Shown here: positions 23,212-50,821 of the stretch, one piece after another
Layout of the letters: every line of letters starts with the position of its first letter
Position numbering within the stretch: the first letter of the stretch is position 1
Assembly (NCBI GenBank): GCA_964016885.1
Contig: OZ024741.1
Location: 131,564,001 to 131,628,000 of the forward strand
Source of the DNA: Eledone cirrhosa
Lineage: Eukaryota
DNA: 64,000 bases
Direction of reading: 5' to 3'
The notes under the pieces: generated by a model
The model's input: the letters and a program-made list of their open reading frames with translations, nothing else
Database searches by the model: none
What the model was told of the DNA's origin: nothing
Program-made: the position numbers and the translations under genes

Positions 23212-23760
23212 GTCAAAGTGACATTATTGAAAAAATGAGAGGGACAATTCTTTTAGAAAAAGAGTTTTATAATGTATATAAAGTATATAAAGTATATAAA
23301 GTATTACCGGTTTCGATGTATTAGTAAAATCCATCTTATCAAATGTTAAGTACTACAATTAAAAAGAATTAATAAGAATTAAAAATTAAAAATTAAAGAT
23401 TTAAAATTAAGTGTTGAGGCAAGTTTTTTTTATTCTTCCTTGCCTCAACATTTAATTCTAAATCTTTAATTTTTACTTTTTAATTCTTATTAATTCTTTT
23501 TAATTGTAATACTCAACATTTGATAAGATGGAATTTAATAATACATCGAAACCGGTAATACTTTATATACTTTATATACATTATAAAACTCTTTTTCTAA
23601 AAGAATTGTCCCTCTCATTTTTTCAATAATGTCACTTTGACGAATCAAAGAAAGGAAAAATGAAAAGAAAAACAGATCCTTAAATATATTTTCCGTGCTA
23701 CTTCCAGTTTCACCTTTTCTCTATAACCACTGTTTTCTATGGAACCTTACTTCCCTTTTC
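23212..23760 (+). mobile_element. Foldback + tail element in (TA)n (putative PLE pLTR derivative)
   Basis: Arms 23212-23423 and 23439-23641, 15-nt spacer, unpaired ~120-bp tail, then (TA)n. Confidence 0.75.
23518..23560 (+). ncRNA. Hammerhead motif with U3-A8 core (mirror copy at 23301-23345 on minus)
   Basis: UUGAUAA-gatg...catc-GAAA-CCGG-UA; palindromic stem III; proximal stem I only 2 bp. Confidence 0.5.
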
Positions 23761-23802
23761 ATATATATATATATATATATATATATATATATATATATAT
23801 AT

Positions 23803-24022
23803 ATATTGTTATGCTTTGGGACGGCCATGTTGCCAATAAGAAACACACGCACCAGTTGCTTTCACTCCAATTTATTATAAATTTAATTTATAATAAATTG
23901 GAGTGAAAGTTACTGGTGCGTGTGTTTCTTATTGGCAACATGACCCTCCCAAAGCATAACAATATCGGTTTCAACACGCGTTTTCAGATAAAGAGTCTTG
24001 CTAAACAAATTCATAAACGAAA
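23803..24022 (+). mobile_element. Foldback + tail element in (TA)n
   Basis: Arms 23803-23883 and 23885-23965 with a 1-nt centre, 57-bp tail; arm start recurs at ~25770-25815. Confidence 0.8.
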
Positions 24023-24197
24023 TATATATATATATATATATGTATATATATATATATATATATATATATATGTAGGAGGTGAGTTTTATTGTAGTACAAT
24101 AAAGCAATGCAGATATCGGATAAGAAGCACTCTACAGTTTGTAGGACTGGAGTATACATAATATATAAGATCAAAAGATGGTTAAAAGAGTTCCATG

Positions 24198-24268
24198 TAT
24201 TTTATTATGCGCATTTCAAAAACAAATATCATCATGCAATAATATTTGTGTTTTCATCGGATAAAATA
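24198..24268 (-). ncRNA. Type-I hammerhead ribozyme in the PLE terminal repeat
   Basis: Perfect stem I tattttat/ataaaata; CCGAUGA core (U4C); ~15-bp stem II; GAAA; palindromic stem III ATGCGCAT; UA cleavage site. Confidence 0.8.
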
Positions 24269-25270
24269 GGAAGACATGATATGAAGGTTAAAAAACACTT
24301 GTGAATAGTGCAGTTTTAAATCAACATATGAAAAGTAGTTTTAGATTGATGTGTGATATTGGGAAAAACAATTTTTGAGGGGGGGGGTTGAAAAAGAGGA
24401 GGAGATGAGAGTAAAAAGTGGAGGGGGAGGAGTATAATGAGGAAGGATGAGATAGGAGGAGAGATGGGTGATAGAGAGAGAGAGATAGCTTTTATAACTG
24501 AGAAAAATATATTGTTTTACATAGAGAGGTTGAAAAACCGTTGGAAGATAATATATAAATTAAAAGAATTTGAAAATTAACGAAGAGAAAAATAATGTTA
24601 AGTTAAGGTTTGTATATTGAAGGGTTTAATAATATGTGCGGTGAAAAGAAATTGTTAATATGTGTTAAGAATAATATTTAAGGGTTTAATAATATGTGCG
24701 ATGGAAAGAAAATGTTGATATGTATTATTAAAAAAATGTAAAAATATAGCAATAGTAATGTAAGTAAGGATATATTGTGAAAGAAGTAGAAGATAGGATG
24801 AATAAGTTAGATGAGCATGAAAGGGAGAAAAAAATAATGAATTGAGGATGAATAATCTAACGTCAAAAAAAATGTTTATGTTTACGAAGGATTTGTTCAA
24901 GGTGATATAAAGTAAGAATATATTGTACTGTGTAATAATTGTTTCTATGTTAGGCACAATGAGAAAAGGTACAGATTAGGGGTTAGAAATTAAAAGAAAA
25001 GAAAAGGAAAAGGAAGAAAGGGAAGTGATAAATAGGAGTGATATAGAATGAGTAGCTAGTAATATATAATGTATAGTAAATAACTTTGAAATAAGGTAGA
25101 AAGATGGGTATATTTTTAAAGAAGTATATATATATATATGTGCCTTTGAGAAAAGGATTTTAAATTGATAAAGTATTAGATATTAGCTGTATACTTTATG
25201 GAATGTTCTGTGGAATTTATGCAAGCAGAGAGAAAACAAGTCAATGCGTCTATTTATTATAGAATCTAAA

Positions 25271-25620
25271 TTAGATATAATGGTAAATTTTTTCATTTAA
25301 ACAGAGATTGCAAGTCTTGGATAGAGAACTGTTCAAGTATGTAGAAGCAGAAGAAACCTTTTTCCAAGAGATGTTATATTTAATATTGTTGTCTTTCAAG
25401 GACCATATGAGTTCTGAGAGTGCCGTGTTGGTTCTTTTAAGTTGGTATTTAAAAGACGAATGATGATTATAAAGACGAGCTTTAAAGGAGGTGGAAGTGG
25501 AGCCAAAATAGGTGAAGGAATTGGTATCAGTTATAACTTTACATTCGTAGATTAAGTTTTTTTTCAAGACAATGGTTGTTGAGAGGACATTTATTTTTAA
25601 CAGGGCAATTGCAATTGCCC
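25271..25620 (-). pseudogene. GIY-YIG endonuclease domain of the PLE
   Basis: CNCPVKNKCPLNNHCL (frameshift in the A-run) then LIYECKV..YFGST..FKARLYNH..SF..TALS..IW..CNLCLNEK. Confidence 0.85.
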
Positions 25621-26364
25621 TGTTAAAAATAAATGTCGTCTTAAAAATAAATGTCCTCTGAAAACACAAATATTATTGCATGATGATATTTGTTTTTGAA
25701 ATGCGCATAATAAAATACATGGAACTCTTTTAACCATCTTTTGATCTTATATATATATATATATATATATATTGTTATGCTTTGGGAGGGTCATGTTGCC
25801 AATAAGAAACACGCATATGTACGTTTTATGAGTATATGAACAGCATAGATGTTACTGTAAATATTTACATAGCAATCTGTATCTGTGTTATGTATTGATT
25901 GAGCTATGGTTAGAGGTATCAGGCCTGTTTTTGTGTATATTATAATTAAGTAGATGCATGAAGGACACACACACACACACACACACACACACACACACAC
26001 ACACACACACACATACACACACACACACACACACACACACACATTTCTGCGTGTGCGTGTGTGTGTGCCTGTGTGTAATGAATATATGTAAGAAAGACAA
26101 TAAATATATGTATAGATAAGCTTGCCAAGGCGTCGGATTTCTAAATTTGTCTGCATTGGAATCTGACAAATTATAGATGGTGGCATTTATCTAAGACATT
26201 TGTTTGTACGCGTTAACATTGTAATTATATAAAAATGAGGATATATATATGTGTGTGTATGTGTGTGTGTGTGTGTGTGTGTGTGTGTGTGTGTGTGTGT
26301 GTGTGTGTGTGTGTATGTATGTATGTACACTATATACTCTTTATATATATATATATGTATATAT

Positions 26365-48800: not shown

Positions 48801-49256
48801 GGCTCTTCCAGCGCATCTCCTTTACCATCCTCCGGAGAAACGCCTTCTCCATTCTGTCCGCCGGGGCTGTGGGGCGGCCAGCACGTGGGACCGACCCCAT
48901 TTGCTCATATTACAGAGAGGTGGGAAGGGCGATAGAAATAGAGGCGATGACAGTGGAAGTTCGGCTCTTCCGTGTTCGGACACAGTTATCAACTCTATGT
49001 ACCTCGCAACTGTAAGAGCTCCATTATTTTACTCAAATTTTTAGAAGCATCCACTAGCGAACGATAGCCAAATCCATCCCACTCTCTATTTCAGCATATC
49101 AAATTAATAACAAAATCATCTTCAAACTTTATGATTTGTAGTAATCTTATTCTTTGTTCCTTTATTCACTGAAGTGAAGTAAATTTTATATTTAAAGGAA
49201 ACCACTTATTTTGTCGTGTTATTTCATCACTAACAACATTTACTAACTTCGCTTCA
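45860..49256 (+). mobile_element. Gypsy LTR retrotransposon remnant (RT-RNaseH-IN, PPT, 3' LTR)
   Basis: YIDD, RELLAVY, TDHKPL, ADALSR, VDRFSRWPEA; PPT aggcggggaa; LTR 48094 TGTAGCGAA..TTCGCTTCA 49256. Confidence 0.88.
48320..48880 (+). mobile_element. CRE-like RLE retrotransposon fragment inside the Gypsy LTR
   Basis: H.LSC..RH, DGRRPDG, WDAT, K..KY, PLAIETSG, QRIS...R.NA. Confidence 0.8.
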
Positions 49257-49769
49257 CTTCATATATATACCAAGAAAAAGAAACGAACAAACACGAGTAT
49301 GCAATATCATGAAGTGTATTAGTTTCTCGCTTGCAGGAAGAAGAATGGGTCAACGTATCGGGTATTTGCCCTTCAGAAAGAAAACACAAAAAGAGAACTG
49401 CAAATAATAATTTTAAAAATTGCTAAAATAAAATAAAATATATATACATATATACATGTATACATACATTTAGCTTTACTCATACTGTTGACTCACGTAT
49501 TGCATGCTCAGTTGCTTACCTTCCACATTATTTGAAAACCTATGTATATACTTATCTATGTACGTCAATATGTTGGAAAAGGCATGACGCCGGCTTTAAT
49601 GGTAATTGAAAAATTCTAAGAAAATAATGAAAGCAGTAGGAGTTTTTCTTTTACATTATGTTATATGGTTTCATGCGGAACAGGACGTTGACTGTTTTAG
49701 AACATCTAATAGAACATTTTCCGAATATCTAAAGCCGCATAAAATGCGGAGAGAGGCGACGAATCGACA

Positions 49770-49915
49770 GAGGCGTTAGAACTTTGGATAGAATGCTTTG
49801 TGGTATTCGTTTAGACTCTATGCTCTCTGAGTTCAAATCCCGTTAATGACATCTTTGCCTTTCAACCATTCCATAATGTCGATAAACATGTACCAGTTAA
49901 GTACTGAGTCGATTC
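49770..49915 (+). mobile_element. Degenerate SINE
   Basis: GAGTTCAAATCCCG..TTTGCCTTTCA..GTCGATAAA..GTACCAG. Confidence 0.75.
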
Positions 49916-50233
49916 TTCTTTTATATCTCTTTCTCACTCTCTCTATCCTTCTCAGGAAAAGATCTGCTGTATTTAGACTTGGAAAGCAGATGGGCTCCCG
50001 CAGGTTTAAAATTGCCTTAAAAACACCGTTCGTCAATACGGCACCCCAAAGACTCCTTTGGGGGTTACGGAACCATGCATGTATTATGCAGGTATCGATT
50101 ATGTATATGTAATAGCCTAGAGGGAAATGTTGTTGTTATTTCTAGCATGACGAAGGATAAAGTAATATCTCCGTTTGTAGATCAAAGATAGATATCTATT
50201 TTGCTTTTGATTATGTTATGATTATTATCATTT

Positions 50234-50445
50234 GGATTAGCAGAATCGTTAGAGCATCGGACAAAATGCTTTGCAGCATTTAGTGACGGTCCTTTATGTT
50301 CTGAGTTCAAATCCCGCCAGGGTTAGCTTCGCCTTTCGTCATTAAGAGGTCGATAAAAGGAAGTATCGGTAATGCACTGGGATCGATTTAATCGACTCTC
50401 CCTTCCCTTTAAATTACTAGCCTTGGGCCTAAAAGTAGAAACAAA
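50234..50445 (+). mobile_element. Near full-length tRNA-derived SINE
   Basis: TAGCAGAATCGTTAG A-box region, GAGTTCAAATCC B box, core, tcgatttaatcga palindrome, AGAAACA end. Confidence 0.88.
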
Positions 50446-50456
50446 TATATATATAT

Positions 50457-50821
50457 ATAGTATAAAAAAAACGAAAAATCAGTGATGCATCTGGACTCAG
50501 TTTATTGCGTGTTACAATTGTTTCGCCGGCAGGTAGCTCGAGACATGATCACTGTATGGATCTGTCCTTTGGACACGGGCAGTTCGTTCGGAGCAAATGT
50601 TCTCTGAAGGAACCTGCAGCCGTAGAATCAGTCAGATCCATACAAGGACCATGTCTCGAGCTACCTGCCGGCGAAACAATTGTAACACGCAATAAACTGA
50701 ATCCAGATGCATCACTGATTTTTCGTTTTTTTATACTATCCACACTCTGCTCTGTATGAATATTGAGTGCTAATTTTGGCATACCGCCTATCGAAGCACC
50801 ATAGCTACCATTATACACAAG
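50457..50821 (+). mobile_element. Foldback + tail element in (TA)n with a hammerhead 3' half
   Basis: Arms 50457-50564 and 50633-50739, ~68-nt spacer, 82-bp tail; GAAA-caattg-UA in the arms. Confidence 0.8.

Follow-up and report, generated by a model that had tools for sequence, protein, structure and literature searches.

The 64 kb window of Eledone cirrhosa DNA analysed here (contig OZ024741.1) contains, in its (TA)n tracts, short foldback sequences that end in an unpaired tail on one side, several with hammerhead ribozyme (HHR) motifs, and a truncated coding Penelope-like element (PLE). A preliminary description had listed five foldbacks, which we call E1, E2, E3, E4 and E5 (the pieces at 23212, 23803, 31452, 32532 and 50457, respectively), and had proposed either a non-coding system with the foldback plus tail as the mobile unit or a set of stereotyped truncated PLE insertions. 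We have used the window, reads mapped on E5 only, protein searches and published papers. The data make it quite probable that no mobile foldback unit is involved and that each piece arose in a separate event, when the 3' end of a (TA)n-targeting PLE was inserted head to head in 5'-truncated form; several such Penelope-like families, among them at least one of Hydra type, would have contributed. This is the second of the two options and it fits published architecture (PMC8557442, PMC3846280, PMC4209133). The families are probably uncatalogued; the architecture is known.

Pairwise alignment confirmed the order arm, spacer, arm and tail for four of the five listed pieces (E1, E2, E4 and E5) and for the coding element, with arms that are 0-8% diverged. 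E1 (23212..23761, plus strand) consists of an inverted copy (23212-23423), a 15-nt loop, a direct copy (23439-23641) and a tail of 120 nt (23642-23761); its arms, aligned over 212 columns, differ by 7 mismatches (3.4%) and a single 9-nt gap. E2 (23806..24022, plus strand) is a near-perfect palindrome in which arms of 78 nt (23806-23883 and 23885-23962; 4 mismatches in 81 columns, 4.9%) flank a 1-nt loop and are followed by a tail of about 60 nt (23963-24022). E4 (32534..32734, plus strand) has an inverted copy at 32534-32607, a direct copy at 32608-32668 that starts within an HHR core and a 66-nt tail to 32734; the paired arms (32534-32595 and 32608-32668) differ by 5 mismatches in 64 columns (7.9%) across a loop of 12 nt. 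E5 (50460..50821, plus strand) is made up of an inverted arm (50460-50564), an inverted upstream piece (approximately 50571-50603), a direct copy (50604-50736) and an 85-nt tail to 50821, with 4 mismatches in 108 columns (3.7%) between the arms 50460-50564 and 50633-50736 and a spacer of 68 nt. In the coding element the outer arms (24168-24256 and 25659-25747) are identical and the tail is 96 nt.

Across the pieces the tails measure 59-120 nt. By inspection, 10 of the 12 outer ends contact a clean (TA)n run and the left ends of E1 and E3 adjoin degenerate TA tracts; as background, 1.7% of the non-run positions in 20-53 kb fall within 3 nt of such a run, and contact with TA tracts is thus much commoner at the ends than in the background. 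The start of the tail-less arm overlaps the flanking TA by 1-7 nt of A/T. The symmetric terminal inverted repeats (TIRs) of a miniature inverted-repeat transposable element (MITE), which the preliminary description had set against its own proposal, were not found, every listed piece having a one-sided tail. Two elements in the same TA tracts, at 26535-27400 and 30575-31207, do have symmetric TIRs, are internally deleted and lack a tail; we take them to be mariner-like. The tail is therefore not general to TA insertions.

The structure of the E5 family was examined by mapping on 50525-50828 in four of the 16 listed runs, which had been found via the coding element: X1 and X5 (contigs) and X14 and X15 (reads). 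In these runs, 1706 contigs of X1, 18 contigs of X5, 2663 reads of X14 and 2423 reads of X15 mapped to E5. The family is abundant, although depth is not a copy number, and is present also under a second organism label; its motif gave no match in metagenome contigs or in viral contigs. Loose ends among those listed run into TA at 50729 and 50739 (26 and 16 contigs in X1, 229 and 139 reads in X14, and 229 reads at 50729 in X15) and into CA or TA at 50819-50827 (CA repeats at 50819 in 260 reads of X14 and 302 of X15). Copies of the E5 family thus terminate at either of two sites, an inner and an outer one, and the tail is the stretch that separates these.

The centre of E5 is not shared by the rest of its family. 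Other copies have the spacer piece 50571-50603 in the reverse orientation, with joints from 50571 to 50606 (2 contigs in X1, 56 reads in X14 and 37 in X15), there are loose ends at 50603 in all four runs, and at the inner end of the left arm the linear family sequence continues in four contigs. E5 has an HHR core, a long stem II and a palindromic stem III, with a stem I of 1 bp at the locus. Placed in family order the spacer gives a stem I of 5 bp, so that the family has a near-complete hammerhead which is scrambled at this locus. Because the centre is a scrambled mosaic with a spacer inverted relative to the other copies, the foldback is likely not the mobile unit. The window holds a second E2 arm copy (25772..25812, minus strand) of 41 nt, with the same inner terminus beside (TA)n and no partner arm, and a diverged relative (39403..39672, plus strand) that is 26/29 identical at that terminus. 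The E2 inner terminus thus recurs without a fold at 25772 and 39672. Fold points common to copies, which the preliminary description had named as a check, were found neither for E5 in the reads nor for E2 among the window copies, and its non-coding system with a mobile foldback plus tail is not supported, given the unshared E5 centre and the E2 arm that starts at 25772 without a fold.

Four sites distinguish the two arms of E5. One of them, 50701, is a private change of the right arm (97-99% of the family has the other letter), but at 50645, 50646 and 50649 each arm has a common family variant (shares in X14 of 0.49, 0.66 and 0.66), for which the rough chance is 0.0002-0.004. These three sites favour two RNA templates over simple self-copying and suggest that the arms likely come from two different source copies. 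The depth in X1 does not drop at the predicted cleavage site, 50684, in agreement with uncleaved templates (PMC11167929).

The coding element (24072..25747, minus strand) is a 5'-truncated PLE that runs from a mosaic inverted copy (25612-25747) through a GIY-YIG fragment (approximately 25622-25186), a 3' untranslated region (UTR) of about 900 nt and an HHR (24260-24206) to an inner terminus at 24168 and a tail ending at 24072. The copy ends at the linker, without reverse transcriptase (RT). The endonuclease fragment spans two frame changes and has 2730 homologues at E<=0.001; a profile of 151 of these scores 128 on the element. The CxCx5C linker, the CxxC before E and the CxH after N are all present across the frame changes, and among the 151 homologues CxxCxxE occurs in 142, N..CxH in 94 and CxCx5C in 44. 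Pfam gave no GIY-YIG match on the endonuclease, only DUF4488 below the cut-off, and a word-indexed homologue search in longer proteins gave 1 match among 79 candidates. Hydra is defined by the CxCx5C, CxxC and CxH motifs (PMC8557442, section 11), and the name is used here because the motifs fit the alignment in the supplement of that paper. Judged from these motifs, the coding element has a Hydra-type GIY-YIG endonuclease, in accordance with the Penelope link and Hydra assignment originally made. Its HHR has one core change and a stem I of 8 bp and lies upstream of both termini, and TA runs flank the element on both sides. The inverted copy comprises 89 nt from the inner terminus to the HHR core, after which it skips about 1.3 kb and resumes at the linker; a short repeat follows, and the junction at 25611/25612 is palindromic. 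That a coding element of the same layout, likewise proposed beforehand, has a Hydra-type endonuclease and an HHR upstream of both termini supports the reading of the pieces as truncated PLE insertions. Endonuclease-profile matches in the window are confined to about 17054-17520, 25144-25708 and 39732-39788; the first and last of these (plus strand) are decayed GIY-YIG fragments of the same kind.

We scanned the window with an HHR descriptor, using 10 shuffled windows as background. There were three strong matches, at 32411 and 23078 on the plus strand and 24260 on the minus strand, with scores of 17-20, and the shuffled windows never exceeded 11. Two of the three fall outside the listed pieces. 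The E4 HHR scored 10, which is inside the shuffle range (0.4 per window); a stricter descriptor missed both E4 and the coding element, and a looser scan for core plus stem II often matched shuffled sequence (0.57 and 2.1 times per window) and also, by chance, the TIR elements. None of the 73 Rfam matches up to E=1 was a hammerhead; Rfam thus overlooked eight or more hammerhead-like motifs in the interval 23-51 kb. When sequences were folded singly, 32400, 23068 and the coding element took up the hammerhead shape, whereas E1, E4, E5, 28537 and 39428 did not.

E4 has a complete but weak-scoring HHR with a palindromic helix III on the minus strand of the inverted copy (32599-32570); the HHR is whole only when the 12-nt loop is read together with the tail-less arm, and the tail-side copy has only the 3' half on the tail-pointing strand. 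In E1 a motif near 23519-23557, also present in the inverted arm, has a U3-A8 variant core, a 4-bp stem II, a palindromic stem III and, read by eye, a stem I of only 2 bp. Stem I is thus weak in E1, as it is at the E5 locus. Neither the descriptor nor the core scan found an HHR within E2 or E3, but the E2 relative at 39403-39672 has a perfect core and a 6-bp stem II at 39428, about 240 nt upstream of the terminus, with stems I and III decayed. The four pieces thus differ in their support for a type-I HHR upstream of the termini: it is present in E5 in family order, has a weak score in E4 and a variant core with weak stem I in E1, and for E2 is seen only in its relative. The motif strand points to the tail in E1, E5 and the coding element, and the core is cut or scrambled by the fold in E4, E5 and the inverted copy of the coding element.

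A known PLE suggests how such structures could arise. In vitro, the protein of Poseidon from Anolis carolinensis, a predicted dimer, cuts and extends both strands (Frangieh et al., 2024; PMC11167929), and reverse transcription starts at two internal sites, separated by the tail, on uncleaved RNA. The two starts and both-strand extension together predict arm, spacer, arm and tail. Poseidon belongs to a different clade, and the relevant sections of that paper do not address whether the two strands use the same or different RNAs. For the pieces described here we infer twin priming, end joining and two templates. The element endonuclease would cut both strands of a TA tract, as the other PLE does in vitro, and both cut ends would then act as primers on uncleaved element RNA, so that reverse transcription begins at the outer start site from one end and at the inner start site from the other. 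The inner start would lie 59-120 nt upstream of the outer one, the interval becoming the unpaired tail, consistent with the two ends common to the E5 family. Both cDNAs, which can likely stem from different RNAs, would be extended as far as the hammerhead and across it, would stall or jump once 60-200 nt had been copied, and would be joined head to head, at times at a palindrome. The spacer would then be what one cDNA copied past the other, and the hammerheads would be passengers of the pseudo-long terminal repeat (pseudo-LTR).

Self-priming, in which a single cDNA or antisense template bends back at a palindrome and is extended along its own sequence, is the model that Arkhipova et al. (2013; PMC3846280) favour for inverted structures while leaving the question open. 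The 1-nt loop of E2 would be expected from it, as would the coding element, which folds at a perfect palindrome centred on 25611/25612 with identical outer arms; by their sequence, E2 and the linker hairpin fit twin priming or self-priming alike. In contrast, the E4 loop and the inverted upstream piece of E5 are missing from the tail-bearing copy. A single self-copying cDNA cannot produce a tail-less copy holding sequence that the tail-bearing copy lacks, and the structure of E4 and E5 favours a pair of cDNAs, each primed on its own. The E5 arms, moreover, hold different family variants, and we regard self-priming as improbable. Recurrence of the layout could also mean that the whole foldback plus tail is a mobile non-coding element or a MITE, and read mapping covered E5 only. 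We consider this very improbable: neither the E5 centre nor the E2 fold is common to other copies, the folds break the ribozyme core, and the true TIR elements of the window are symmetric and tail-less.

A further possibility keeps the insertion mechanism but changes the source, some of the RNAs (E5 above all) being short hammerhead RNAs without an open reading frame (ORF), mobilised in trans by Hydra-type or other PLE proteins in the manner of short interspersed elements (SINEs) or retrozymes. The summed contig depth of the E5 family is about 200,000 on the arm as against 4-17 for single long pieces, which again should not be read as a copy number; the depth drops sharply on the upstream side of the HHR, with two different upstream sequences (loose ends at 50603 and 50624); and non-autonomous PLE derivatives are known (PMC8557442, PMC3846280, PMC7229834, bioRxiv 10.64898/2026.07.22.740005). 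However, none of 48 tandem-repeat rows for 22800-52000 is a tandem HHR repeat, reads extend upstream of the core (169 in X14, where arm depth is about 1030), the 33-nt inverted piece is too short for a fair contig depth, and steep 5' truncation is usual for PLEs (PMC4209133). With an inverted piece of only about 33 nt, the E5 depth contrast of 200,000 versus 1,500 is not used here as a main argument. Such an ORF-less source seems rather unlikely, and we hold with similar reserve the combined case, in which a dimeric enzyme primes both cut strands on two different RNAs and the E5 family is a very abundant ORF-less hammerhead RNA using that machinery.

Several observations weigh against one-off PLE insertion by twin priming. 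With the endonuclease profile no mini-piece in the window is linked to an RT or endonuclease ORF, and six-frame translations of E1-E5 and the E3 relatives, on which no RT profile was run, gave no endonuclease-profile match. E2 and E3 are without a detectable HHR. The tails exceed the published 30-40 bp, and the two 3' termini rest on the E5 reads and on the E2 inner terminus with its two further copies. The E2 centre and the hairpin 25568-25655 are palindromes that fit self-priming equally (PMC3846280). The three variant sites of E5 lie within 17 nt of the junction, so that they could also be the product of a brief template switch or of gene conversion after insertion, and their linkage was taken from near-equal counts, not read by read. 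The variant and loose-end figures come from listings that omit 82 and 227 rows, respectively, and the listing of mapped pieces gives 16 of 1745. Finally, each E5 arm contains AATT, the sequence at which restriction site-associated DNA (RAD) reads end, and foldback copies are therefore likely to be under-represented in the reads; for this reason the lack of fold joints in RAD reads was dropped as an argument.

Inverted 5'-truncated copies with a one-sided tail have been described for PLE insertions in genomes (Craig et al., 2021; PMC8557442, Fig. 2 legend; PMC3846280). Endonuclease-containing Penelope-like insertions share with the present pieces the head-to-head inverted copy, single-end tail, junction palindromes, microsatellite targets and capture of foreign sequence, but have tails of 30-40 nt as against 59-120 nt here, where most pieces are reduced to the pseudo-LTR. 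With the Hydra clade the coding element shares the CxCx5C linker, the CxxC and CxH around E and N, the (TA)n target and the 3' HHR, and several HHRs in the supplement of PMC8557442 have an extra U on each side of stem II, as in E4. The supplement records Hydra-1_Obim in Octopus bimaculoides. The window copy, likened to it without direct sequence comparison, has no RT, changes reading frame twice and carries some 900 nt of 3' UTR. The minimal type-I hammerheads of PLEs have a small palindromic helix III and a U3-A8 core variant, are mostly solo motifs from truncated PLEs, and also occur as opposite-strand pairs 100-700 bp apart (Cervera & de la Peña, 2014; PMC4209133); the window motifs match these with no substantial difference from what is reported there. 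Non-LTR retrozymes are similar in being short, non-coding, provided with a type-I HHR and related to PLE pseudo-LTRs (PMC7229834; bioRxiv 10.64898/2026.07.22.740005), but are defined by head-to-tail repeats with an HHR per unit, of which there are none in 22800-52000. An Octopus vulgaris annotation reports 31 recently active Penelope-like families, and the part concerned does not mention hammerheads (PMC13282606).

As a class of element the pieces are therefore ordinary, their layout being already published. What the data add to this is the longer tails and the different family variants on the two arms of E5; a narrow literature check found no paper on two-template arms. The use is mechanistic, since the formation of Penelope inverted structures is unsettled and short stubs with subfamily-assignable arms are natural records of single insertions. 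If two-RNA priming is true, arm haplotypes in stubs would provide a genome-wide test of twin priming versus self-priming, the question left open in PMC3846280.

Among themselves the listed five are unrelated in sequence, as described (only the pair E4-E5, at 22, exceeds the highest shuffle score, 21). Relatives of E2, of the E3 tail and of two HHR pieces do, however, occur at other places in the window. E3 (31452..39369) does not belong with the other four. It is a head-to-head pair of a repeat running into (TATC)n with nested insertions inside, and its arms (31673-31859 and 39180-39369; 10 mismatches in 193 columns) are 7.3 kb apart. Because they enclose a long interspersed nuclear element (LINE), the whole of E4 and an additional HHR piece, E3 is no mini-element. 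The descriptor scan, core scan and endonuclease profile found neither an HHR nor an ORF link in it, and a CTGACGA near 31520 is missing in both relatives of the E3 tail. The 221-nt 'tail' is the terminus of a family also found at 26366-26518 and 50996-51163. The three copies (the third at 31452-31584) are unclassified, share one terminus by TA and differ in length; a 9-nt word near this terminus recurs inverted at 31817.

The nested LINE (33482..39186, minus strand) is interrupted, matches RVT_1 (E=4.5e-26), is bounded by a 17-nt direct repeat (33465-33481 and 39187-39203) and is not part of the Penelope pieces. A tandem array of related LINE copies, with a unit of about 4.96 kb (95.5% identical), occupies window positions 1-16700. 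Among the unlisted HHR pieces, 32070..32501 (plus strand) lies between TA runs, and its HHR, at 32400-32480, is complete and has a stem I of 11 bp. This HHR is fused at 32394/32395 to 266 nt of LINE, inverted and 99% identical to 34111-34376, that LINE lying 1.7 kb away; the fusion is likely a template switch onto LINE RNA or nearby DNA during PLE insertion. The piece at 22933..23178 (plus strand) has a complete HHR (23078-23127) and no foldback. Another HHR-bearing end occurs in two copies (28537-28604 and 50856-50975; 41/46 identical), both ending at one site before TA. In six of nine HHR-bearing pieces (breaks at 32395, 28539, 32608, 39403, 50604 and 24256) the 5' break lies no more than about 25 nt from the first base of the catalytic core, which may reflect RT stalling at the ribozyme or only ascertainment bias. 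Further foldbacks without clean TA flanks are present at 19617-19817 (85%), 22343-22612 (67%) and 42770-43238 (68%), and a SINE-like dispersed repeat of about 100-190 nt has many copies, including those at 11661, 27693, 50217, 54246-57200 and 62166.

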